DNA of 64,000 bases. It comes from Escherichia coli (lineage in GTDB: Bacteria > Pseudomonadota > Gammaproteobacteria > Enterobacterales > Enterobacteriaceae). A program made the translations under genes and the position numbers. The stretch lies in the NCBI RefSeq assembly GCF_013315695.1, contig NZ_CP054353.1; one strand, written 5' to 3'. Below are positions 549-64,000 of the stretch, in pieces. Under the pieces are notes generated by a model, which had not been told where the DNA came from, did no database searches, and saw nothing but the letters and a program-made list of their open reading frames with translations. Each line of letters starts with the position of its first letter. Position 1 is the first letter of the stretch.

Positions 549-1475
<927 letters not shown>

Positions 1476-15771: not shown

Positions 15772-17197
15772 TAATGCCAGTCAGTTAAGCAACTGACTGG
15801 CTCTTTTTCGGGGCTGTGGGGTATTTCCAGGGCCTCTCCTTTACCACTCTCGGGAAGGCCCTTTCCCTTCTTGTCGGTAATTTCACAAGTTGTCCCATAC
15901 TTGCAAGATCGCGCATCAGCTCCGGTATACGTCCCGGTGAAGCGCCCTGCAATGTCATCAGCATTCTCATCACCATTCCGCATGATTCTGAGAAACTCAG
16001 TTGATTCGGCCAGTAACCTTTCAGATGTTCCGCCATTTTAATCATCTGATATCTCACCAGATTATAAGCCAGTAAGACACCCCACAGCTCTTGCTCCACA
16101 AGCTCCGGTTTTTTACTTCTCAGCGTCAGCCTGCTCAGTTGCATCGTCTGTTTTATCTCCCTGTATCCCAGTTCGATTTCCCAGCGATGACTGTACAGAT
16201 CCGCCATTTCTCCTCCGGGGAAGCGCATGGCGTCCGTCATCGACGTCAGCAGATGGCAGACTTTTCCTTTGCGCGTCACGGTCAGCAGGCGGGCTGTCAC
16301 TTCATTTCCCAGTCCCGGCCACTTTTTTCGTGCCTGCGGGCTGGTTTTCAGCTTCACCAGATGATCGCCTTTACCCAGTTTTCTGATCTCTTCATATTGC
16401 GCTCCCTTTCTGAGAGGTATCATCCAGTGGCGGTGTTCTCCCGCCAGGCTCCAGGCATTTAACAGTCCCAGTGAGTAATAACCTTTATCCATTAACGTCA
16501 GAGTGTTATCGCCGGTTTGTTCTATAAGTTGCTCAGCAAGCTCATTTTCGCTGTTCTTCATCGTGCCGAAGGCTGCAGCCGTCAGCAGATGGCTGGTCAG
16601 TTCCATCTGGCAGACCATTTTGACCTGCGGGTAGAGCGCCGGGTTCCCGGCATGTGTCTGGCGGGGGAAGGCTGCATCGTTCTCTGGTGTATCCGGTGTG
16701 CGCCAGAACACACCATCGATGGCCAGCAGGGTCAGGCCGCACCAGTGCGGATGCGGCGTGGCGTTATGCCAGAGCTGCGCTGTTTTCGTGAACACGCGGC
16801 GGACAGCCTCACTTCCCAGGCGCTGGCGGGCCTGAATAACGGCACTGGGGGCAACGAAGGGGCGATTGCCCGGCAGCATGATGTCCAGGCGATTCACAAT
16901 CTGGTGAAGAGGTTCTTTACGCTCAAGCGCCATGCCAACAATACACCAGACCATCATTTCGAGGGGAAGACGGCGCTTGCGTAGCGTTACAGTACCTGAT
17001 TCGGCAAGGCAACGAGAGATGAGTTCGGGGTCGAGGTAATCCCCCAGAGAAGTCAGTGGGTTACGCAGAGAATCGTAACGGGATACCAGATCAAGAGCCT
17101 GTCCAATGTGCATAAAAAAATCCGGAAACAAGTGAGCGTTTCCGGATTCTTACACAGCCACTGGATCGGTCAACTGATCCTTAACTGATCGGCATTA
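15772..17197 (-). mobile_element. IS4 insertion sequence, complete (1426 bp)
   Basis: Imperfect terminal inverted repeats TAATGCC(A/G)(G/A)TCAGTTAAG at both ends, intact transposase, perfect 12-bp target duplication; length matches IS4. Confidence 0.85.
15785..17113 (-). CDS. insG: IS4 transposase
   Basis: ORF 15785..17131; start at [10 protein letters not shown] gives 442 aa; recalled as the IS4 InsG sequence. Confidence 0.85.
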
Positions 17198-23992: not shown

Positions 23993-24076
<84 letters not shown>

Positions 24077-24110: not shown

Positions 24111-24195
<85 letters not shown>

Positions 24196-30300: not shown

Positions 30301-31041
30301 GGAGTTGTACCAGTCAGCAGATTCCGGTACGTCAGTTTGCTCGCCCCAGGTTTGCGGAGACGCAGGAGGCAGGTCGCAGTACCAGTCGTAGAAGCTTAAG
30401 CAAGTACCGCCAATCAGCGAAAGATAGCGTGCACCCGATGCGTAAGAAACCATCGACATTGCCGGAATTGGCGAGAAGCCAGCGACGCGGTCCGGGCCGT
30501 AGTTTTTGATGGTGTAAACGTTAGAGGCGGCGATCAGTTCATTCACTTCCTGCCAGGAAGAACGAACAAAACCACCGCGTCCACGCGCCTGCTTAAAGCT
30601 TTTCGCTTTATCGGCGTCTTCAATGATAGAAGCCCATGCCTCAACCGGATCGCTATGCAGCGCCTTCGCTTCACGCCACATTTTCATCAGGCGTTTGCGC
30701 ATCATTGGGTATTTCAGGCGGTTGGCGCTGTAAAGATACCAGGAGTAGCTGGCACCGCGCGGGCAGCCGCGAGGTTCATGGTTTGGCAGGTCCGGGCGAG
30801 TACGCGGATAGTCAGTCTGCTGGGTTTCCCAGGTCACCAGACCGTTTTTGACGTAGATTTTCCAGCTGCAGGAGCCGGTGCAGTTTACCCCGTGGGTAGA
30901 GCGGACGATTTTGTCATGCTGCCAACGCTGGCGATATCCATCCTCCCAGTCACGGTTGGTATTGAGAAGCTGGCCATGCCCATCGGCAAAGGTTTCACCC
31001 TTCTGTTTGAAGTAGCGAAACCGGTCCAGGAATTTACTCAT
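27298..31041 (-). CDS. narG: respiratory nitrate reductase A alpha subunit
   Basis: 1247 aa molybdopterin oxidoreductase; N-terminal HGVNCTGSCSWKIY FS0-cluster motif. Confidence 0.96.
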   Translation of the reverse strand: MSKFLDRFRYFKQKGETFADGHGQLLNTNRDWEDGYRQRWQHDKIVRSTHGVNCTGSCSWKIYVKNGLVTWETQQTDYPRTRPDLPNHEPRGCPRGASYSWYLYSANRLKYPMMRKRLMKMWREAKALHSDPVEAWASIIEDADKAKSFKQARGRGGFVRSSWQEVNELIAASNVYTIKNYGPDRVAGFSPIPAMSMVSYASGARYLSLIGGTCLSFYDWYCDLPPASPQTWGEQTDVPESADWYNSSYIIAWGSNVPQTRTPDAHFFTEVRYKGTKTVAVTPDYAEIAKLCDLWLAPKQGTDAAMALAMGHVMLREFHLDNPSQYFTDYVRRYTDMPMLVMLEERDGYYAAGRMLRAADLVDALGQENNPEWKTVAFNTNGEMVAPNGSIGFRWGEKGKWNLEQRDGKTGEETELQLSLLGSQDEIAEVGFPYFGGDGTEHFNKVELENVLLHKLPVKRLQLADGSTALVTTVYDLTLANYGLERGLNDVNCAASYDDVKAYTPAWAEQITGVSRSQIIRIAREFADNADKTHGRSMIIVGAGLNHWYHLDMNYRGLINMLIFCGCVGQSGGGWAHYVGQEKLRPQTGWQPLAFALDWQRPARHMNSTSYFYNHSSQWRYETVTAEELLSPMADKSRYTGHLIDFNVRAERMGWLPSAPQLGTNPLTIAREAEKAGMNPVDYTVKSLKEGSIRFAAEQPENGKNHPRNLFIWRSNLLGSSGKGHEFMLKYLLGTEHGIQGKDLGQQGGVKPEEVDWQDNGLEGKLDLVVTLDFRLSSTCLYSDIILPTATWYEKDDMNTSDMHPFIHPLSAAVDPAWEAKSDWEIYKAIARKFSEVCVGHLGKETDIVTLPIQHDSAAELAQPLDVKDWKKGECDLIPGKTAPHIMVVERDYPATYERFTSIGPLMEKIGNGGKGIAWNTQSEMDLLRKLNYTKAEGPAKGQPMLNTAIDAAEMILTLAPETNGQVAVKAWAALSEFTGRDHTHLALNKEDEKIRFRDIQAQPRKIISSPTWSGLEDEHVSYNAGYTNVHELIPWRTLSGRQQLYQDHQWMRDFGESLLVYRPPIDTRSVKEVMGQKSNGNPEKALNFLTPHQKWGIHSTYSDNLLMLTLGRGGPVVWLSEADAKDLGIADNDWIEVFNSNGALTARAVVSQRVPAGMTMMYHAQERIVNLPGSEITQQRGGIHNSVTRITPKPTHMIGGYAHLAYGFNYYGTVGSNRDEFVVVRKMKNIDWLDGEGNDQVQESVK

Positions 31042-31132: not shown

Positions 31133-31146
31133 TTGATAACGATCAA
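31133..31146. promoter_or_regulatory. FNR box (TTGAT-AACG-ATCAA) in the narG promoter
   Basis: Perfect TTGAT-N4-ATCAA palindrome ~90 bp upstream of the narG start codon. Confidence 0.65.
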
Positions 31147-31190: not shown

Positions 31191-31434
31191 TTAGGATAAT
31201 TAGCAGTTACAGCATAACACGCTGTAAATTAAGACGTTTTATACCTGTAGTTATTTAAACTATTAAGATTTTTATGCAGATGGGTATTAAGGAGTATTCC
31301 CCATGGGTAACATATTAATGGCTCTTAATGAAATCCGGCGAAATAAGCCAATATAATATGAGTATGTTGTAACTAAATGACGCATAAAAAAAGCGCGACA
31401 TCATGCCGCGCAAAGGATAATCAAATATTAAGAT

Positions 31435-32826
31435 TTATTTTTTAGAATGCCGACCATATACCGCCCAGGTAATCACCACGCAGGCGATATAGAAAATCAA
31501 AAATACTTTCATTGCGCCGACTGGCGAACCCGTTAATGCCAGCGAGCTACCAAACGCTTTCGGGATAAAGAAGCCACCAATCGCGCCAATCGCAGAGATG
31601 AAACCCAGCGCCGCCGCCGTGTCGGTTGCCGCTTCACGCATCGCACGTTCGTCAGAACCCCCTTCTGCTTTCACGCGATCCATTGTCAGTTTACGGAAGA
31701 TCACGGAAATCATCTGGAAAGTGGAACCACTACCCAGCCCAGCTGTCAGGAACAGCGCCAGGAAGACTGCGAAGAACGCCATGAAGCTTCCGCCCTGTCC
31801 GTCAGTCGGTAAGGTCAGGAACAGCAGGCCGCTGAAAATCGCCATCAGGATAAAGTTCACCAGCGTGACACGAGTTCCGCCCAGACGGTCAGATAATGCA
31901 CCACCTGCAGAACGCGCCAGCGCACCAATAAACGGCCCGAAGAAAGCGTATTGCAGAATCTGAACATCCGGGAACTGCGTTTTTGACAGCATCGCAAAGC
32001 CCGCGGAGAAGCCGATGAAGGAGCCGAAGGTTGCCAGATACAGCAGGCTCATAATCCACAGATGACCCCGTTTGAGTACCGGCAACTGCTCCTTGATGGA
32101 GGCTTTCGAGGTAGCAAGATCGTTCATGCCAAACCACGCTGCAATGGTGAAGATGGCAAGGAACGGCACCCATACCCAGGACGCATTCGCCAGATACAGC
32201 TCAGTCCCATCCGGCTGTTTGACACCCTGGCTACCAAATACTGCGAAAATCGACAGTGATACCACCAGCGGAGCAACCAACTGCATGACGCTGACGCCCA
32301 TGTTGCCCAGACCACCATTCAGACCCAACGCGCCACCCTGCTTCTGTTTCGGAAAGAAGAAGCTGATGTTTGCCATACTGGATGCGAAGTTCGCGCCAGC
32401 AAAGCCGCACAGCAGAGAGATGATGATGAAGACGCTATAAGGCGTGGAGGTATCCTGCACGGCAAAACCCAGCCAGACGCAAGGAATAATCAGAATACCG
32501 GTGCTGAACGCCGTCCAGCGACGACCACCGAAGATAGGAACCATAAAGGAGTATGGAACACGTAATAACGCGCCAGAAACCGAAGGCAGCGCAGTCAACA
32601 TAAATAGCTGATCGGTCGTAAAATTAAAACCGACTTTCGGTAAGTTCACCGCAACAGCGCTGAACAACATCCATACGCAAAACGCCAGCAGCAGACAGGG
32701 AACGGAAATCCACAGGTTGCGGCTGGCAATACGTTGACCGCGTTGTTGCCAGAACGCAGGATCTTCCGGTCGCCAATCTGTAATGACAGCTCCAGTAGCC
32801 CTTTCGGGGGCGGATGAGTGACTCAT
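31435..32826 (-). CDS. narK: nitrate/nitrite transporter NarK (MFS)
   Basis: ORF 31435..32832; start at MSHSSAPERATG gives 463 aa; 12-TM MFS protein. Confidence 0.92.
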   Translation of the reverse strand: MSHSSAPERATGAVITDWRPEDPAFWQQRGQRIASRNLWISVPCLLLAFCVWMLFSAVAVNLPKVGFNFTTDQLFMLTALPSVSGALLRVPYSFMVPIFGGRRWTAFSTGILIIPCVWLGFAVQDTSTPYSVFIIISLLCGFAGANFASSMANISFFFPKQKQGGALGLNGGLGNMGVSVMQLVAPLVVSLSIFAVFGSQGVKQPDGTELYLANASWVWVPFLAIFTIAAWFGMNDLATSKASIKEQLPVLKRGHLWIMSLLYLATFGSFIGFSAGFAMLSKTQFPDVQILQYAFFGPFIGALARSAGGALSDRLGGTRVTLVNFILMAIFSGLLFLTLPTDGQGGSFMAFFAVFLALFLTAGLGSGSTFQMISVIFRKLTMDRVKAEGGSDERAMREAATDTAAALGFISAIGAIGGFFIPKAFGSSLALTGSPVGAMKVFLIFYIACVVITWAVYGRHSKK

Positions 32827-32885
32827 AGACACCTCTGATACTCGTTTCGATGTCTGCCACCTTAGTGTCTGTAGCTAAAGGCAAT

Positions 32886-32899
32886 TTGATGTAAATCAA
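32886..32899. promoter_or_regulatory. FNR box (TTGAT-GTAA-ATCAA) in the narK promoter
   Basis: Perfect TTGAT-N4-ATCAA palindrome ~60 bp upstream of the narK start codon. Confidence 0.6.
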
Positions 32900-33164
32900 A
32901 CGATAAGATAACTTTATCTATCATTGATATTTATCATTACCCATAGTGAGTACAGTGATTTCATAAAAATTATGAGATTTTTCACGGTGCTGTAAAATCC
33001 CTCCCCTTACCGATGTAAAGCGACTAACCACGCGGCAAATAAGGAGTAACTCTTTCCGGGTATGGGTATACTTCAGCCAATAGCCGAGAATACTGCCATT
33101 CCAGAATGTATCGTCACATTCATTAAGGTTATTGCTCATTTAAAGCCTGAAGGAAGAGGTTTAC

Positions 33165-34961
33165 ATGCTTACACGTTGTCTCTCTCCGCTCACCCTGGTT
33201 AATCAGGTTGCGCTTATTGTGTTGCTTTCTACTGCTATTGGACTGGCAGGGATGGCAGTTTCTGGCTGGCTAGTGCAAGGAGTTCAGGGCAGCGCCCATG
33301 CGATCAACAAAGCGGGATCGCTGCGCATGCAAAGTTACCGTCTGTTGGCGGCAGTGCCATTAAGCGAGAAAGACAAGCCCTTAATTAAAGAAATGGAACA
33401 AACGGCATTTAGCGCCGAGTTGACTCGAGCAGCGGAACGAGACGGACAACTGGCGCAATTACAGGGTTTACAAGATTACTGGCGTAATGAACTGATCCCT
33501 GCGCTGATGCGTGCACAAAACCGCGAAACGGTGTCAGCGGATGTCAGCCAGTTTGTTGCCGGGCTTGATCAGCTGGTATCTGGTTTTGACCGCACCACGG
33601 AAATGCGCATTGAGACAGTGGTACTGGTCCATCGGGTAATGGCGGTATTTATGGCACTTTTACTGGTGTTCACTATTATCTGGTTGCGGGCGCGACTGCT
33701 ACAACCGTGGCGGCAACTGCTGGCAATGGCGAGTGCCGTCAGCCATCGCGATTTTACCCAACGCGCAAACATCAGCGGGCGCAACGAAATGGCGATGCTT
33801 GGAACTGCATTGAACAATATGTCTGCAGAACTGGCCGAAAGTTATGCCGTACTTGAGCAGCGGGTTCAGGAGAAAACTGCCGGGCTGGAGCATAAAAATC
33901 AGATCCTCTCTTTTTTATGGCAGGCTAACCGCCGTTTGCATTCCCGCGCCCCGCTGTGTGAACGCCTGTCACCGGTACTCAACGGCTTACAGAATTTAAC
34001 CCTGCTACGTGATATCGAACTGCGGGTGTATGACACTGATGATGAAGAGAATCATCAGGAGTTTACCTGCCAGCCAGATATGACTTGTGATGATAAAGGC
34101 TGCCAGCTCTGCCCGCGCGGCATATTACCCGTTGGCGATCGCGGCACAACCCTGAAGTGGCGGCTGGCTGACTCTCATACGCAGTACGGTATTTTGCTGG
34201 CGACCCTGCCGCAGGGGCGTCATCTTAGCCATGATCAACAACAACTGGTGGATACCCTGGTTGAACAACTCACCGCCACGCTGGCGCTGGATCGGCATCA
34301 GGAACGTCAGCAACAGTTGATCGTGATGGAAGAGCGTGCCACCATTGCGCGCGAACTGCATGATTCTATTGCCCAATCTCTCTCTTGCATGAAGATGCAG
34401 GTGAGTTGTTTACAGATGCAGGGCGATGCGCTGCCAGAAAGCAGCCGCGAACTGTTAAGTCAGATCCGTAACGAACTGAATGCATCCTGGGCGCAGTTGC
34501 GTGAATTGCTCACTACATTCCGCTTGCAGCTCACCGAGCCTGGATTACGTCCGGCGCTGGAGGCGAGTTGCGAAGAGTACAGCGCCAAATTTGGCTTCCC
34601 GGTGAAGCTGGATTATCAATTGCCGCCTCGTCTGGTGCCTTCGCATCAGGCAATCCACTTGTTGCAAATTGCCCGTGAGGCATTAAGTAACGCCCTCAAA
34701 CATTCGCAAGCGAGTGAGGTCGTGGTGACGGTGGCGCAAAACGATAATCAGGTCAAACTGACCGTCCAGGATAACGGCTGCGGCGTGCCTGAAAATGCCA
34801 TCCGCAGCAATCACTACGGCATGATAATAATGCGCGACCGTGCGCAAAGTTTACGAGGCGATTGCCGCGTCCGCCGTCGTGAATCAGGTGGCACCGAAGT
34901 GGTTGTCACCTTTATTCCCGAAAAAACTTTCACAGACGTCCAAGGAGATACCCATGAGTAA
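33165..34961 (+). CDS. narX: nitrate/nitrite sensor histidine kinase NarX
   Basis: 598 aa; two TM segments, HAMP, H-box ELHDSIAQ, HATPase domain. Confidence 0.94.
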
Positions 34962-40163: not shown

Positions 40164-40698
40164 ACTGCAACAGCTGTTGAAAAGCCGGAATGTACTCTTT
40201 ATTGCAAACATTTCAGGGATGAAGTGAAGATGAATTGAGACGTAGTATCCACACCAAGCCGGCGTTATCCGGTGAGGCGCAATGTTGCGGGGGCTTTATC
40301 CCTGGTGGCATTGGTTGCTGGAAAGAGAAAACCCCCGCACGTTGAGAGGTACAACCTGACAACAGAACGGGGGCTAATCTTGAACCACAACAATTCAAGA
40401 ATAGCCGCAAAATGTTGTCCTTACAACAAGGCGGCTATATGACGCTCGCGCAGTTTGCCATGATTTTCTGGCACGATCTGGCAGCACCGATCCTGGCGGG
40501 AATTATTACCGCAGTGATTGTCAGCTGGTGGCGTAACCGGAAGTAAGGTGAAAACGGGCGTCAGGCTGCCGTGATGGCAATATGCGCCCGAAACCGGCCG
40601 CAGGGGTAACAGCCTGCGGCCCTTTTTGTCTTTATCTCTTCTGCAAGTAAATATTGGCAACCCGAGCTGGAAGCATCATCCAGAGCACTCATGAAACG
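40164..40698 (+). repeat. LDR (long direct repeat) unit 1, ldr/rdl type I toxin-antitoxin locus
   Basis: 535-bp unit nearly identical to 40699..~41166 (a few SNPs); contains the ldr ORF and its terminator. Unit boundaries approximate. Confidence 0.8.
40439..40546 (+). CDS. ldr: Ldr small toxic peptide (35 aa), type I toxin
   Basis: Encodes MTLAQFAMIFWHDLAAPILAGIITAVIVSWWRNRK; below the length cut-off of the ORF track; followed by hairpin plus T-run terminator (40596..40627). Confidence 0.85.
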   Translation: MTLAQFAMIFWHDLAAPILAGIITAVIVSWWRNRK

Positions 40699-41166
40699 AC
40701 TGTAACAGCTGTTGAAAAACCGGAATGCACTCTTCATTGCAAACATTTCAGGGATGAAGTGAAGATGAATTGAGACGTAGTATCCACACCAAGCCGGCGT
40801 TATCCGGTGAGGCGCAATGTTGCGGGGGCTTTATCCCTGGTGGCATTGGTTGCTGGAAAGAGAAAACCCCCGCACGTTGAGAGGTACAACCTGACAACAG
40901 AACGGGGGCTAATCTTGAACCACAACAATTCAAGAATAGCCGCAAAATGTTGTCCTTACAACAAGGCGGCTATATGACGCTCGCGCAGTTTGCCATGATT
41001 TTCTGGCACGATCTGGCAGCACCGATCCTGGCGGGAATTATTACCGCAGTGATTGTCAGCTGGTGGCGTAACCGGAAGTAAGGTGAAAACGGGCGTCAGG
41101 CTGCCGTGATGGCAATATGCGCCCGAAACCGGCCGCAGGGGTAATAGCCTGCGGCCTTTTTTGTAT
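40699..41166 (+). repeat. LDR unit 2, ldr/rdl type I toxin-antitoxin locus
   Basis: Second tandem copy; ends just past the terminator hairpin (41131..41162), where sequence diverges towards kdsA. Confidence 0.8.
40974..41081 (+). CDS. ldr: Ldr small toxic peptide (35 aa), second copy
   Basis: Identical 35-aa peptide to the first copy, 535 bp downstream. Confidence 0.85.
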   Translation: MTLAQFAMIFWHDLAAPILAGIITAVIVSWWRNRK

Positions 41167-53527: not shown

Positions 53528-53718
53528 TTCCGCTAATACTACTCTGGCGGTTAATAACGAGCCATTATGTGAGTTGCACGTAATGGCTTTTTTACGCCTG
53601 CTACGCGTCTTCTTTCAATTCTGAGTTACCAAAACTCATAATCAGACTCCTGACAATATTAACAATGCAGCTTTTATGTGATAACAATCACAGTGCATTA
53701 ACCGTTCAAGAGTTTGTC

Positions 53719-53895
53719 ATGAAAAAAACATTTACCTTCAGCCTGTTAGCAATTGTCTTTGCAAGCCTGTTGAGTGCTTGTGTTCCCCACCATCATCACC
53801 GCCACAGCGATGGCCCTCGTGGTCCTGCGCCCTCCGGTAAGCCAATGCCACCTTCAAATGGTGGACCAAATCACGGCAGTCATGGTCGCTATTAA
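53719..53895 (+). CDS. hypothetical small lipoprotein, His/Pro/Gly-rich (58 aa)
   Basis: ORF 53665..53895; ATG at 53719 preceded by AAGAG at -8; MKKTFTFSLLAIVFASLLSAC signal peptide with lipobox LSAC; mature part CVPHHHHRHSDGPRGPAPSGKPMPPSNGGPNHGSHGRY. Product not recognised. Confidence 0.5.
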   Translation: MKKTFTFSLLAIVFASLLSACVPHHHHRHSDGPRGPAPSGKPMPPSNGGPNHGSHGRY

Positions 53896-53931
53896 TTAGC
53901 AATTCATAGCGGGAAAGTACATACTCTCCCG

Positions 53932-55851
53932 CTATCCACGGCGCTTAAACTGCCCTGCATCAATGCCATGTTGCTTCATTTTCCGCCACAGCGTAGTGCG
54001 GCCGATTCCAAGTAAAGCCGACATTTCCTGAATGCGACCGCCTGTGACCTGGGCTGCGTTAATAATTGCCTCTTTTTCAACTTCCGCAAATGACAGACTG
54101 GTGGAAAGACGGGTGGCGCTGACATCATCTGTCGCCTGCTCGGTAAACAGATGTTCAGGTAAATCACTGACGCGAATGCGCCCGTTATCACTACTCAGAG
54201 CAAGATTCTCGATGACGCTGTAAAGTTCAAAATCGTTGCCTGGCCATGCACAAGAAACCAGGCGAGCGAGGGCATCGTCATCAATTTTCAGCCGCGTAGA
54301 GAAGCGTTTTTCAAGGCTGCGTAATTTGTTATTCACCAGCGCCGGAATGCTGCCACGCCGCATACGCAGTGGCGGGATGGTAATTTCAAATGCATGCAGC
54401 GCGTAATACAGCTGGCGACTAAAACGATTTTGTTCCACCAGCATTGCCAGGTCCGCGGTCGTTGTGGCAATCACTTTGACATCAATGGGTATTAAACGCC
54501 GCGCATCCAGTCGCGTGATAACCCCCTGCTTGATAACCTGAAGCAAAGCAGACTGTAACTCCACCGCCAGATATTCAATCTTTTCAAGAAACAGCGTGCC
54601 GCCGTGCGCCAGTTCCAGCCGACTCAGACGACCATTTTCATTGTCCGTGCGATCGCCGCCAATAAATTCTTCCGCCAGCGCCGCATCACCATATAACTCA
54701 CAATTGACGGCGATATAAGGCCCCGCTGCACGCTCACTTTCATTATGAATTGCCTGACTTAGCAGTGCCTTGCCCACGCCCTCTTCTCCACAAAGCAGGA
54801 CAGGAAGGCTACTGCGCGCCGCCTGGCGACCAAAATGAATCAAGCGGCGGGTTTGCGGATCGTCCTGTGGCATATGAGCGAAAGTATGGCTGACTTTTCC
54901 TAATTGACTGGTCATTAACTGCCGCATCTGTTCCACAGGATGGAGCAACAAAATAAAGCTGGTTCCCTGCGTTTCTATTATCGGTTTAAGGGTTATCACC
55001 GCATCAATAAACTGGTGCTGACTTTCAAAGGTTGCTTCTACGTGTTTGAGCGGATGTGCCTGTTTTATTGCTTGTTGCAATACGGCGGGTAACGTTAAGA
55101 GTTCAGTGATCGCCCTTCCCTGACTTGCCGTCGCGTCAAGGCGCAAGACCCGCGCCGCCTGGGCATTGATAAATTGCAAATTACCCTGCTCGTCCCAGCT
55201 AATCACACCATCATCCATACTTTCTAACAGGGCATTAAGTTGATTTAAATGACGGTTAGTTTCAGCGAGCAAACTGTCCGTCAGCAGTAAATTTCCGACC
55301 TCGCGTGCGATTGCCAACGTCAACGGCAAATCAGCTGCGGTAGTTTGCTCAACCGGACACGCCAGCGCTATTGTTCCCGTCAATCGGCCCTTGCTGTCAA
55401 ACAACGGCGTTGCACAAAAGGCCCAGTTCCAGAGTGCCTGTTTGAAATGTTGATCGGCCATCGTTTTCACGGCCTGACCAGAGATAGCCGCTAATGATAG
55501 CGCACAAGTACCAATAATTCCCTCGGCGCAATACGTGCCGTCATTGAATCCCAGTGCACTTAGCTGCTGCAAGGTTTGCGGATCGCCATTACGGCTGAGA
55601 ATGCAGGCGGTTTCATCGAGGATAAGCAACGCACACTCTCGCGGTGCCATATATTCCCAGGCATCTTCCAGCGCAGCCTGCCCGAGCGTCAGCATCGCTT
55701 TCTTACGCCGATAAATAGAAGCAAATGTCACGCCCTGGGCCTGGTGTGGTACGTTCCATGTCTCCCGTTTCATCAGCTTAATGCATCGCTCCCAGGAGGT
55801 TGCAATTAAGGGAGATATGTCCCGACCATCGTTGTTAAAAGCGCCACTCAT
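53932..55851 (-). CDS. dhaR: dihydroxyacetone kinase operon activator DhaR (sigma54-type EBP-like AAA+ regulator)
   Basis: ORF 53932..55860; start at MSGAFNNDGR gives 639 aa; GAF/PAS N-terminal region, AAA+ core, C-terminal Fis-type HTH. Confidence 0.92.
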   Translation of the reverse strand: MSGAFNNDGRDISPLIATSWERCIKLMKRETWNVPHQAQGVTFASIYRRKKAMLTLGQAALEDAWEYMAPRECALLILDETACILSRNGDPQTLQQLSALGFNDGTYCAEGIIGTCALSLAAISGQAVKTMADQHFKQALWNWAFCATPLFDSKGRLTGTIALACPVEQTTAADLPLTLAIAREVGNLLLTDSLLAETNRHLNQLNALLESMDDGVISWDEQGNLQFINAQAARVLRLDATASQGRAITELLTLPAVLQQAIKQAHPLKHVEATFESQHQFIDAVITLKPIIETQGTSFILLLHPVEQMRQLMTSQLGKVSHTFAHMPQDDPQTRRLIHFGRQAARSSLPVLLCGEEGVGKALLSQAIHNESERAAGPYIAVNCELYGDAALAEEFIGGDRTDNENGRLSRLELAHGGTLFLEKIEYLAVELQSALLQVIKQGVITRLDARRLIPIDVKVIATTTADLAMLVEQNRFSRQLYYALHAFEITIPPLRMRRGSIPALVNNKLRSLEKRFSTRLKIDDDALARLVSCAWPGNDFELYSVIENLALSSDNGRIRVSDLPEHLFTEQATDDVSATRLSTSLSFAEVEKEAIINAAQVTGGRIQEMSALLGIGRTTLWRKMKQHGIDAGQFKRRG

Positions 55852-59536: not shown

Positions 59537-61236
59537 TTGATGAAATCCCCCGCACCTTCTCGCCCGCAAAAAATGGCGTTAATTCCAGCCTGCATCTTTT
59601 TGTGTTTCGCTGCGCTATCGGTGCAGGCAGAAGAAACATCGGTAACACCACAACCGCCTGATATTTTATTAGGGCCGCTGTTTAATGATGTGCAAAACGC
59701 CAAACTTTTTCCGGACCAAAAAACCTTTGCCGATGCCGTGCCGAACAGCGATCCGCTGATGATCCTTGCTGATTATCGGATGCAGCAAAACCAGAGCGGA
59801 TTTGATCTACGCCATTTCGTTAACGTCAATTTCACCCTGCCGAAAGAGGGCGAGAAATATGTTCCGCCAGAGGGGCAATCACTGCGCGAACATATTGACG
59901 GACTTTGGCCGGTATTAACGCGTTCTACCGAAAATACCGAAAAATGGGATTCTCTGTTACCGCTGCCGGAACCTTATGTCGTGCCGGGCGGACGTTTTCG
60001 CGAGGTATATTACTGGGACAGTTACTTCACCATGTTAGGGCTTGCCGAAAGCGGTCACTGGGATAAAGTCGCGGATATGGTGGCCAATTTTGCTCATGAA
60101 ATAGACACTTACGGTCATATTCCCAACGGCAACCGCAGTTACTATTTAAGCCGCTCGCAGCCGCCCTTCTTTGCCCTGATGGTAGAGTTACTGGCGCAGC
60201 ATGAAGGCGATGCCGCGTTGAAACAATACCTGCCGCAAATGCAAAAAGAATATGCTTACTGGATGGACGGTGTTGAAAACCTGCAAGCCGGACAACAGGA
60301 AAAACGCGTTGTCAAACTTCAGGATGGTACCCTTCTCAACCGCTACTGGGACGATCGCGATACGCCACGACCAGAGTCATGGGTGGAAGATATTGCCACC
60401 GCCAAAAGCAATCCGAATCGACCTGCCACTGAAATTTACCGCGACCTGCGCTCTGCCGCTGCGTCTGGCTGGGATTTCAGCTCGCGCTGGATGGACAATC
60501 CGCAGCAGTTAAATACCTTACGCACCACCAGCATCGTACCGGTCGATCTGAACAGCCTGATGTTTAAAATGGAAAAAATCCTCGCCCGCGCCAGCAAAGC
60601 TGCCGGAGATAACGCGATGGCAAACCAGTACGAAACGCTGGCGAATGCCCGTCAAAAAGGGATCGAAAAATACCTGTGGAACGATCAACAAGGCTGGTAT
60701 GCCGATTACGACCTGAAAAGTCATAAAGTGCGCAATCAGTTAACCGCGGCCGCCCTGTTCCCGCTGTACGTCAATGCGGCAGCGAAAGATCGCGCCAGCA
60801 AAATGGCGACGGCGACGAAAACACATCTGCTGCAACCCGGCGGCCTGAACACCACGTCGGTGAAAAGTGGACAACAATGGGATGCGCCAAACGGCTGGGC
60901 ACCGTTGCAGTGGGTCGCGACAGAAGGATTACAAAACTACGGGCAAAAAGAGGTGGCGATGGACATTAGCTGGCACTTCCTGACCAATGTTCAGCACACC
61001 TATGACCGGGAGAAAAAGCTGGTGGAAAAATATGATGTCAGCGCCACCGGAACGGGGGGCGGGGTGGCGAATATCCATTACAGGATGGCTTTGGCTGGAC
61101 CAATGGCGTGACGCTGAAAATGCTGGATTTGATCTGCCCGAAAGAGCAACCGTGTGACAATGTTCCGGCGACGCGTCCACTCAGTGAATCAACAACACAA
61201 CCGCTAAAACAAAAAGAGGCGGAACCTACGCCTTAA
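59537..61236 (+). pseudogene. treA: periplasmic trehalase treA, disrupted by a 1-nt frameshift near the 3' end
   Basis: ORF 59537..61111 (524 aa) ends ...[20 protein letters not shown]. The +1 frame from ~61069 continues for 55 codons as [37 protein letters not shown]... to a TAA at 61234..61236, which is the expected trehalase C-terminus. The shift lies in the G-rich tract 61055..61069. Confidence 0.6.
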
Positions 61237-61551
61237 CTTTACTGTATATCGAGCAATGCCATTACATGCATAAAATTGGCATTGCTCTTTCTTCACCACG
61301 AAATACCACTCTTTCTACGGTCTATGCCTTTATTTTCTTTTATTAGAGAAGATTTTAATTTTATTTTATCAACTTGTTAATCATTACACCTCTATTTATA
61401 TTTTCCCCCACTCCCCATTCTCCCTGACAATTTTCTTGTGGAACAAAGTGTTATTTAAGCAACAAGCAAATCATTCTGTCTCTTTAGACAAATTTTGGTG
61501 ATGCTGCCAACTTACTGATTTAGTGTATGATGGTGTTTTTGAGGTGCTCCA

Positions 61552-61827
61552 GTGGCTTCTGTTTCTATCAGCTGTCCCTCCTGTTCAGCTACTGACGGGG
61601 TGGTGCGTAACGGCAAAAGCACCGCCGGACATCAGCGCTATCTCTGCTCTCACTGCCGTAAAACATGGCAACTGCAGTTCACTTACACCGCTTCTCAACC
61701 CGGTACGCACCAGAAAATCATTGATATGGCCATGAATGGCGTTGGATGCCGGGCAACAGCCCGCATTATGGGCGTTGGCCTCAACACGATTTTACGTCAC
61801 TTAAAAAACTCAGGCCGCAGTCGGTAA
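61552..61827 (+). CDS. insA: IS1 InsA
   Basis: 91 aa, [43 protein letters not shown]... Confidence 0.9.
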
Positions 61828-62249
61828 CCTCGCGCATACAGCCGGGCAGTGACGTCATCGTCTGCGCGGAAATGGACGAACAGTGGGGCTATGTCGGGGC
61901 TAAATCGCGCCAGCGCTGGCTGTTTTACGCGTATGACAGGCTCCGGAAGACGGTTGTTGCGCACGTATTCGGTGAACGCACTATGGCGACGCTGGGGCGT
62001 CTTATGAGCCTGCTGTCACCCTTTGACGTGGTGATATGGATGACGGATGGCTGGCCGCTGTATGAATCCCGCCTGAAGGGAAAGCTGCACGTAATCAGCA
62101 AGCGATATACGCAGCGAATTGAGCGGCATAACCTGAATCTGAGGCAGCACCTGGCACGGCTGGGACGGAAGTCGCTGTCGTTCTCAAAATCGGTGGAGCT
62201 GCATGACAAAGTCATCGGGCATTATCTGAACATAAAACACTATCAATAA
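61746..62249 (+). CDS. insB: IS1 InsB (transposase reading frame, expressed as InsAB' by -1 frameshifting)
   Basis: 167-aa ORF overlapping the insA 3' end in the -1 frame; recalled InsB sequence. Confidence 0.88.
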
Positions 62250-62341
62250 GTTGGAGTCATTACCCAAATTTTGACATCAAACATGATCTTTTTCGCTATA
62301 TGTGTAAGTATATAGCGGTTTTAATTATCAGGATATTACTT

Positions 62342-63364
62342 ATGTCACTAACCAGACGGAGGTTTACACAGATTCTTGCGTCGACATTGTTCCTGCATCA
62401 TCTGCCGTCCTTTGCACAATCAGTCAAATTCTGGGCCTCACTGACGCTTCCCGAAGCCCAAAACATTACACGCATCGTCAGCGCAGGCGCGCCCGCCGAT
62501 TTACTATTGCTGGCTGTCGCGCCAGAAAAAATGGTCGGTTTTTCCTCTTTTGATTTTGCCCGTCAGGCATTAATTCCATTGCCAGAGCACATTCGCCAGT
62601 TCCCCAGGCTGGGACGACTCGCCGGGCGCGCCAGCACACTCTCGCTGGAAGGGCTTATGGCGTTACATCCCGATTTGGTCGTTGATTGCGGCAATACGGA
62701 TGAAACCTGGATCTCCCAGGCACGGCAGGTTAGCGAACAGACACAAATACCCTGGTTATTGCTTAACGGGAAACTGGAACAATCAGCAGAACAGTTAACA
62801 ACGCTTGGCAAAACGTTAGGCGAAGAGCACCGCGCCACAGAACAAGCCAATCTCGCCAGCCGCTTCGTTGGTGAAGCTCAGGCATTCGCCACCTCACCCG
62901 CCGCTAACCTCAGCTTTTATGCTGCGCGCGGTCCTCGAGGGCTGGAAACGGGCTTACAGGGTTCGTTGCATACCGAGGCGGCAGAATTATTAGGTTTGCA
63001 TAACGTCGCGCAAATAGCCGATCGCCACGGTCTGACACAGGTTTCCATGGAAAATCTCCTGCGCTGGCAGCCGGATATTATTCTGGTTCAGGAGGCCGTT
63101 ACTGCAGATTTTATTCGTCGTGATCCTCTCTGGCAGGGCGTGAAAGCGGTTGCGGAACAACGCATCTTATTTTTAAGTGGCCTGCCCTTTGGCTGGCTGG
63201 ATGCCCCGCCGGGAATCAACCGTCTTCTGGGATTACGCAGACTTCACGCCTGGCTGGATCCCGCCATCAATCGTCAGTTTAAAAGTGACATGCAGCATTA
63301 TGCCCAACTGTTCTGGCATTGTTCACTCAGTGACGCCGACTATCAAAAATTGGTGGCGAGCTAA
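62342..63364 (+). CDS. ABC transporter periplasmic substrate-binding protein, iron-siderophore/cobalamin (TroA-like) family, Tat-type signal
   Basis: ORF 62300..63364; start at MSLTRRRFTQILASTLFLHHLPSFAQ (twin-arginine-like motif); general resemblance to FecB/FhuD/BtuF-class binding proteins; directly followed by a FecCD-type permease. Family assignment is from sequence character only. Confidence 0.6.
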   Translation: MSLTRRRFTQILASTLFLHHLPSFAQSVKFWASLTLPEAQNITRIVSAGAPADLLLLAVAPEKMVGFSSFDFARQALIPLPEHIRQFPRLGRLAGRASTLSLEGLMALHPDLVVDCGNTDETWISQARQVSEQTQIPWLLLNGKLEQSAEQLTTLGKTLGEEHRATEQANLASRFVGEAQAFATSPAANLSFYAARGPRGLETGLQGSLHTEAAELLGLHNVAQIADRHGLTQVSMENLLRWQPDIILVQEAVTADFIRRDPLWQGVKAVAEQRILFLSGLPFGWLDAPPGINRLLGLRRLHAWLDPAINRQFKSDMQHYAQLFWHCSLSDADYQKLVAS

Positions 63365-64000
63365 TGAGAACCGTAAACGGATGTATTTTGCTGCTGGCAG
63401 CTATCAGTATCACTTTTGCCGCCGTAAGTGGGGCTTATCATCTCGATATGCAGCAATTGCTGGCGCTCATTCTTCGTCAAGAAAATGTTCCTGTGCAGGA
63501 ACAAATTGTCTTCTGGCAAATCCGCGTGCCGCGTATTCTTGCTGCGCTGTTTCTGGGCGCGGCGCTGGCAGGGGCCGGAACCACCTATCAGGGAATGTTC
63601 CGTAATCCCTTAGTGTCACCGGATATTTTAGGCGTCTCCGCCGGTGCCGGACTTGGTGCCTGCGCGGCAATCCTGTGGGGATTATCCATTGTTTACATCC
63701 AGCTGTACGCATTTTGCGGCGGGCTGATGGTGGTCGCGGGCGTCTGGTTGATTACGCGTCGGGTGACCCGCCACGATCCGATCTTAACCCTGGTGCTGGT
63801 AGGTATTGCGTTAGGCACGTTGTGCGGAGCGGGGATATCGCTAATAAAAACGCTGGCCGATCCTTACACCCAGTTACCGTCAATTACCTTCTGGTTGCTG
63901 GGGGGGCTGTCCACCGTGACCTTACGCGATCTCTGCTATGCTGCACCGATCATTCTCATAGGCTCCTTGCCCCTGTTTTTTCTCCGCTGGCGCATGAATT
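63364..64000 (+). CDS. ABC transporter permease, FecCD family (partial; runs off the window end)
   Basis: ATG at 63364 overlaps the upstream stop (TAATG); translation MRTVNGCILLLAAISITFAAVSG...RVPRILAALFLGAALAGAGTTYQGMFRNPLVSPDILGVSAGAGLGA... is typical of FecCD/BtuC permeases. Not in the ORF track because it is truncated by the window. Confidence 0.6.
   Translation, partial: MRTVNGCILLLAAISITFAAVSGAYHLDMQQLLALILRQENVPVQEQIVFWQIRVPRILAALFLGAALAGAGTTYQGMFRNPLVSPDILGVSAGAGLGACAAILWGLSIVYIQLYAFCGGLMVVAGVWLITRRVTRHDPILTLVLVGIALGTLCGAGISLIKTLADPYTQLPSITFWLLGGLSTVTLRDLCYAAPIILIGSLPLFFLRWRMN

Follow-up and report, generated by a model that had tools for sequence, protein, structure and literature searches.

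Between the divergent genes narK and narX of Escherichia coli lies a 14-bp inverted repeat that matches the FNR consensus perfectly. Which protein uses this repeat, which of the two genes does it serve, and what else in the spacer may contribute to the control? We addressed these questions in a stretch of 64,000 nucleotides of E. coli DNA (NCBI RefSeq assembly GCF_013315695.1, contig NZ_CP054353.1), hereafter called the window. An earlier note, made from the letters alone, had described the spacer as a narK-narX control region with a perfect FNR box, and had called the arrangement the expected architecture.

The nitrate/nitrite antiporter gene narK occupies 31435..32826 on the minus strand (an open reading frame of 463 aa, 99.8% identical to K-12 NarK), and the nitrate sensor kinase gene narX occupies 33165..34961 on the plus strand (598 aa, from the open reading frame and annotation comparison). 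The two genes are divergent, as the earlier note had stated, and the spacer between them, 32827..33164, is 338 bp long, exactly as in K-12 MG1655. The longest narK open reading frame has 465 aa and opens with a GTG at 32832; K-12 and strain AF3 have the start annotated two codons further in, at the ATG of 32826 (MSHSS...). In AF3, which is near-identical to the window, the annotated narK is equivalent to 31435..32826, and narX begins at the equivalent of 33165. Of the limits previously given for the region, 32833-33164, the one on the narX side holds, while the one on the narK side had followed the GTG frame and has to be moved to 32827. An open reading frame at 32624..32899 (minus strand, 91 aa, TTG start), which overlaps the narK start out of frame, was taken as a chance frame, and Rfam at gathering thresholds placed no RNA family in the spacer. 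A 601-bp query over the region returned matches of at least 95% identity, with narX and narK annotated, in 5415 of 5426 complete E. coli genomes. Matches to the spacer were found on plasmid-labelled records in 13 of 5421 cases, and some E. coli genomes held up to three copies.

Across the aligned spacer, the window differs from K-12 by four substitutions, and the stretch from the FNR box to the narK ATG is free of them, the two sequences agreeing there in every base. The third codon of narX holds one substitution, two are in a non-conserved stretch between the distal NarL heptamers and a conserved block at -110 to -135 of narK (both described below), and the last is between this block and the proximal NarL pair. 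No functional effect of these substitutions is evident from the sequence, and they appear to be strain-level differences.

The primary FNR box, TTGATGTAAATCAA, lies at 32886..32899 and was assigned to the minus strand, where it reads TTGATTTACATCAA in the direction of narK. Both the reading of the sequence and a pattern search bore out the perfect TTGAT-GTAA-ATCAA that had been noted at this place: 10 of the 10 core positions of TTGAT-N4-ATCAA are identical. Counted from the A of the narK ATG at 32826, its nearest edge (32886) is at 60 bp, in agreement with the distance of about 60 bp noted before, and its centre (32892.5) at 66.5 bp. The surroundings are indeed AT-rich, with a G+C content of 38.8% in the spacer 32827..33164 and 28% around the box (32860..32980), against 50.1% in the window. 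In DNA of this kind a perfect match could be a functionless product of chance: TTGAT- and ATCAA-like words are enriched in AT-rich spacers, and the two perfect boxes that the window holds on both strands were also reached in 1 of 100 shuffles of it. Nevertheless, the expectation from the shuffles was 0.13 perfect boxes per 64 kb, from which about 7e-4 (less than 1e-3) follows for a given 338-bp stretch. Both boxes of the window precede nar genes known to be FNR-dependent, narK and narG.

The distribution of the box among genomes bears on the same question. Within E. coli, a 60-mer spanning it has a match in 5415 of the 5426 complete genomes, with 4557 records showing 100% identity. A scan for NarK with one genome per species gave 80 loci, among them 46 with narX divergently upstream and 27 without an adjacent narX. 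A perfect TTGAT-N4-ATCAA lies upstream of narK in all 46 narX-linked loci, from Escherichia to Rahnella and Limnobaculum, with a distance from box centre to ATG of 64.5 to 68.5 bp in 39 full-length Enterobacteriaceae loci and of 88.5 bp in three Rahnella loci. The loci without an adjacent narX are mostly narU-type paralogues, and 26 of these 27 carry no site with one mismatch or fewer in the 400 bp upstream. In an alignment of 24 sequences, most of the spacer has diverged freely and discrete blocks have been kept: ATCAGAGGTGTCT, CTAAnGT, the FNR box together with runs of T and A on its flanks, TACTCAY-T-AWGGGTA, CGTGAAAAAYCWCA..TTTTT, and ATACCCATACC...TTACYYCTTAATTGCC. That the box stays perfect in 46 of 46 orthologous loci, while the flanking sequence outside the blocks has diverged, is not what a functionless match would be expected to do, and for the identical K-12 sequence both FNR occupancy and FNR-dependent expression have been published (PMC3688515). 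Conservation and ChIP data together refute the chance explanation in practice, and we assign it virtually no probability.

The published evidence on K-12 comes largely from Myers et al. 2013 (PMC3688515). According to their Table S6, the exact 14-mer TTGATTTACATCAA is listed for 'narX/narK' at 1277107, with a PatSer score of 17.06 (ln p -16.52) and a '+' for its position under a ChIP-seq peak; the same table has it overlapping IHF ChIP-chip enrichment. The coordinate 1277107 is 73 bp before the K-12 narK ATG, the same distance as separates the distal edge of our box, 32899, from the ATG in the window. FNR ChIP-seq and ChIP-chip peaks for the narK site are at 1277080-1277082, and Table 1 of that study gives narK as under direct activation by FNR, together with a ChIP-seq peak at 1,277,082, one site, and the top site at -41.5; sigma-70 occupancy and expression of narK both rise without oxygen. 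In agreement with this, narK is 'Activated' in the wild type versus the fnr mutant (Table S8), and its ratio in the aerobic versus the anaerobic wild type is 0.068 (Table S12). Within the part of Table S6 examined, only nirB reaches the score of 17.06 and only yfiD (17.25) surpasses it, and the strict conservation of the box fits the place of narK among the highest-affinity FNR targets. A review also describes direct control of narK by FNR and NarL (PMC8139620). The comparison to the mapped narK promoter suggested in the earlier note thus came out in favour of its reading: the site is the published K-12 14-mer, with its centre at -41.5 and a Table S6 score of 17.06 (PMC3688515), and the architecture is as expected, with a sequence from box to ATG identical to that of K-12.

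A second FNR-like site, TTGATATTTATCAT, lies at 32924..32937, 38 bp upstream of the primary box and centred at about -79.5 of narK. It carries one mismatch, and in the alignment it is present only in some Escherichia sequences (E. coli, E. albertii), without conservation beyond them. It is below the threshold of Table S6, and Table 1 counts a single narK site (PMC3688515).

The published data also bear on the possibility that the main user of the primary box is not FNR but some other protein of the CRP/FNR family, for example CRP. CRP and FNR recognise related inverted repeats, and both proteins bind to some of the sites. The half-sites TTGAT and ATCAA with a 4-bp spacer are nevertheless the FNR-specific form, whereas the CRP form is TGTGA-N6-TCACA, and it is FNR that gave the ChIP-seq signal and fnr on which the change in narK expression depends (PMC3688515). 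We consider principal use by another family member extremely improbable, and take FNR to be the protein that acts here.

How is the narK promoter built around this box? The K-12 narK promoter is the same locus, with the same 14-mer, flanking genes, orientation and 338-bp spacer, and four substitutions. Its FNR site at -41.5 was reportedly described by Bonnefoy and DeMoss 1992 and by Kolesnikow et al. 1992, and these two papers, together with that of Li, Kustu and Stewart 1994, are the primary ones on the mapping of the promoter. With the position transferred from K-12 (PMC3688515), the box spans -48 to -35 with its centre at -41.5, which falls within the range of class II FNR promoters (about -41.5, +/- 4, over the -35 region). 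Counting back from the published -41.5, the transcription start would be at 32851 on the minus strand, at an A after a C, leaving a 5' UTR of 25 nt. The putative -10 element is the hexamer TAAGGT at 32859..32864 (minus strand), 21 bp from the FNR box, which would lie at -13 to -8 if transcription starts at 32851. It matches TATAAT at 3 of 6 positions, among them the A of position 2 and the T of position 6, which are the key ones, and it belongs to the CTAAnGT block of the alignment, reading TAAnGT / TAATGT in other genera. The Shine-Dalgarno sequence of narK, AGAGG at 32832..32836 (minus strand), lies within the conserved ATCAGAGGTGTCT-ATG, and AGAGGT is nearly invariant across genera.

No recognisable -35 hexamer is present at the narK promoter, because the FNR box occupies its place. 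Class II activator-dependent promoters are normally laid out in this way, and on account of it a scan for sigma-70 consensus promoters did not call the narK promoter. A possible second promoter in the narK direction, TTTACA-16-CATAAT (32996..32969, 10 of 12 positions), was rejected: one such match was found against 1.1 expected by chance, and its part of the spacer lacks conservation beyond Escherichia. Inspection by eye for ModE-like (TAYAT-N7-TAYAT) and NsrR-like motifs gave nothing convincing; narXL is a target of ModE control.

Upstream of the FNR box, the spacer holds conserved blocks that go beyond what the earlier note had read from it, and we regard the part of NarL and IHF described below as a refinement of that reading. 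Matches to the NarL heptamer TACYYMT number three in 338 bp, or 8.9 per kb against 0.69 per kb in the window, a density 13 times higher; three were reached in 1.3% of shuffles, and all three lie within conserved blocks. The proximal one is part of an inverted pair, TACCCAT-A-GTGAGTA, at 32938..32952 (-87 to -101 of narK), conserved as TACTCAY-T-AWGGGTA. The spacer of this pair is 1 bp, and not that of the canonical 7-2-7 arrangement; in a 7-2-7 reading, which we rejected, the second heptamer would match at only 3 of 7 positions, compared with 6 of 7 when the spacer is 1 bp. Binding of NarL to the proximal pair seems probable from the consensus (PMC7419079) and from the parallel with the -89 site of narG (PMC4549865). 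Further upstream are two heptamers on the minus strand: TACTCCT at 33042..33048 (-191 to -197 of narK), within the conserved TTACYYCTTAATTGCC block, and TACCCAT at 33062..33068 (-211 to -217 of narK), within ATACCCATACC, a block that does not vary in 40 of the 41 Enterobacteriaceae sequences examined. Predicted NarL heptamers are found, in other words, near -90 and near -200, as in a composite control region of the nar type.

Between the proximal and distal NarL sites, the conserved block CGTGAAAAAYCWCA..TTTTT at 32961..32986 (-110 to -135 of narK) is a candidate for a bending site of IHF. The IHF ChIP-chip region given by Myers et al. as U00096.2 1276940-1277493 in their supplementary data (PMC3688515) corresponds to 32513..33066 of the window and covers this block. 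The match of the block to the IHF consensus WATCAANNNNTTR is weak (6 of 9 by eye), and we propose it as an IHF site tentatively.

The neighbouring narG promoter offers the closest comparison within the window. Its FNR box is also perfect, reads TTGATCGTTATCAA on the narG strand, and lies at 31133..31146 (minus strand), with its centre 98.5 bp upstream of the narG ATG at 31041. Like that of narK, it is placed at -41.5 (Table 1 and the Table S6 entry; PMC3688515). The two boxes differ in their central 4 bp (CGTT in narG, TTAC in narK) and in their scores (14.78 against 17.06), the narG leader is longer (98.5 bp from box centre to ATG, against 66.5 bp), and narG, unlike narK, is not divergently paired with a regulator gene. 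At narG, NarL-phosphate is reported to leave footprints at about -89 and -195; IHF is needed there, and a 7-2-7 site is absent (PMC4549865). The heptamer words TACCCAT and TACTCCTTA of the distal block are common to narG and narK, and the upstream NarL heptamers of narG, TACCCATGGGGAATACTCCTTAATACCCAT, are visible in the K-12 alignment. A second useful comparison is nirB, whose FNR site shares with that of narK the 14-mer TTGATTTACATCAA, the PatSer score of 17.06 and the centre at -41.5 (PMC3688515). It differs from narK in the part of NarL, which at nirB displaces IHF and so overcomes repression by IHF and Fis (PMC3688515), and does not act from about -200.

If the box is the FNR operator of narK, does it also serve narX? 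The label 'narX/narK' which Myers et al. (PMC3688515) gave to the ChIP peak leaves room for a bifunctional operator, shared by the two genes, from which FNR would activate narK and repress the divergent narXL. Repression of narXL by FNR is stated in a paper (PMC1805755) which cites Takahashi et al. 1994, reportedly on the repression in vitro of fnr and narX transcription by FNR, and the only FNR-like sites with two mismatches or fewer in the whole spacer are the box and its one-mismatch neighbour. The geometry, however, speaks against a shared operator. Between the centre of the box and the narX ATG there are 272.5 bp, with no better FNR-like site closer to narX and none with two mismatches or fewer near the narX promoter element; some 200 bp separate the box from TGGGTA-17-GAnAAT, the one conserved promoter-like element that faces narX, and a relaxed scan of the plus strand over the box gave at best 7 to 8 of 12 promoter positions, none of them convincing. 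For FNR to repress narX, one would look for an FNR site by the core promoter or the start, and none lies by the proposed ones. In addition, a narL mutant is complemented by a narXL clone that carries only 226 bp of sequence before the ATG (PMC7419079); this clone starts at about 32939, and is without both FNR-like sites. Neither narX nor narXL is in the list of FNR-dependent operons of Table S8 (PMC3688515). We consider the bifunctional operator improbable, and assign the box to narK alone, a role at narX being unlikely as judged from the sequence. The reading of the earlier note is upheld for narK, and a role of the box at narX finds no support in the sequence.

The element that does face narX deserves a description of its own. 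The proposed narX core promoter, TGGGTA-17 bp-GAGAAT, lies at 33063..33091 on the plus strand, with a predicted start at about 33098, which would leave some 67 nt of 5' UTR. GAnAAT follows TGGGTA after exactly 17 bp in 39 of 41 Enterobacteriaceae spacers, the other two having CAGAAT in its place, and the intervening bases vary. We preferred GAnAAT to an alternative -10 element, TATACT at 33067..33072, which reads TATACC in several genera and so loses the T at position 6. The -35 hexamer TGGGTA coincides with the invariant NarL heptamer, that is, the distal TACCCAT overlaps the proposed -35 element, and the distal TACTCCT is at about -53 of the proposed promoter. This arrangement invites the tentative suggestion, which we hold to be possible though not the likelier outcome, that the distal NarL module (33042..33048 and 33062..33068) serves both divergent promoters. 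For narK, it would be a far-upstream activating site (-194/-214), which an IHF bend would bring to the promoter; for narX, it would present two heptamers at about -53 and -33 of the core promoter at 33063..33091. Activation of narXL by NarL is reported (PMC1805755), and narXL autoregulation is also mentioned elsewhere (PMC9436347).

Taken together, we propose that FNR almost certainly uses the 14-bp inverted repeat as its operator at a class II FNR-dependent sigma-70 promoter which drives narK. Without oxygen, dimeric [4Fe-4S]-FNR would occupy the box at -41.5, overlapping the -35 region, and would recruit and activate RNA polymerase at a weak core promoter that has the -10-like TAAGGT and no good -35 hexamer. 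Transcription of narK would then begin near 32851, 25 nt before the ATG. Nitrate would add a second layer, in which phospho-NarL binds the heptamers near -94 and near -194/-214, and the conserved block at -110 to -135 between the NarL sites is probably bent by IHF, in an arrangement like that described for narG.

The same promoter would, through narK, also drive the 3'-UTR sRNA NarS. In Salmonella, both FNR and NarL are required for the narK-derived NarS, which also depends on the promoter of narK (PMC7038943). The end of narK differs between the window and K-12. In K-12 (L001:4850..4976) an ERIC/IRU-like element of about 123-127 bp, containing CACCCCAGTCACTTACTT and GTAAGCTCCTGGG, lies directly after the narK stop and inside the sRNA gene narS (b4813), and the corresponding sequence of the window (31375..31434) is without this element. 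The narK-narG spacer is 393 bp in the window versus 515 bp in K-12, and the narK 3' UTR of the window runs for about 60 nt to a terminator hairpin. Since the element is absent from the window, the annotated 184-nt narS of K-12 includes a strain-variable insertion.

Other differences from K-12 were seen along the window. The first 1788 positions have no K-12 match at the locus and look like a prophage or IS remnant next to kch; the collinear AF3 annotation there consists of a tail-fibre fragment, an IS3-family transposase and an integrase Arm-domain fragment, and a strong Rfam match to isrC (619..741, plus strand, 145 bits) overlaps the start of the IS3-family transposase gene. A copy of IS5U between ychE and oppA in K-12 is absent from the window (about 11680), and between adhE and tdk an IS4-family transposase (about 15785..17131) stands where K-12 has an ISZ remnant. 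Two tandem tRNA-Tyr(GTA) genes lie at 23993..24075 and 24111..24195, with Rfam scores of 41 and 53 bits respectively. The first has 83 nt and a 1-nt deletion in the 3' acceptor strand (CCCCCAC-ACCA vs CCCCCACCACCA). About 800 bp of the K-12 tyrT-tyrV/rttR/tpr region are missing from the window, and AF3 has a single tRNA-Tyr there. Of the ldr/rdl type I toxin-antitoxin units the window has two (rdlD Rfam matches at 40326..40391 and 40861..40926) and K-12 three (ldrABC/rdlABC), the alignment offset between them amounting to one 534-bp unit. In place of a 3.7-kb K-12 segment with the autotransporter adhesin gene ycgV, the window has about 410 bp (53529..53939), where AF3 has a small hypothetical gene annotated. 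The treA reading frame (treA, 59537..61237) stops early, at 61111, giving 524 aa versus 565 aa in K-12, which fits the frameshifted treA pseudogene annotated in AF3. Beyond treA (61238..64000), IS1A and iron ABC transporter genes are found instead of the K-12 ycgY.

Our analysis concerns a window which carries the nar regulatory hub of E. coli, namely narXL, narK and narGHJI. The FNR site of narK was already known and is one of the textbook FNR sites. That a validated operator was found from the sequence alone, and correctly interpreted, makes it a positive control for reading regulation from the letters. The conserved promoter-like element of narX, lying over a NarL heptamer, is a modest and testable by-product; if the dual use of the distal NarL module is true, the known autoregulation of narXL by NarL would be tied to a definite site. 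A small comparative addition is that the full FNR consensus has been kept in every narX-linked narK promoter examined across the Enterobacterales.
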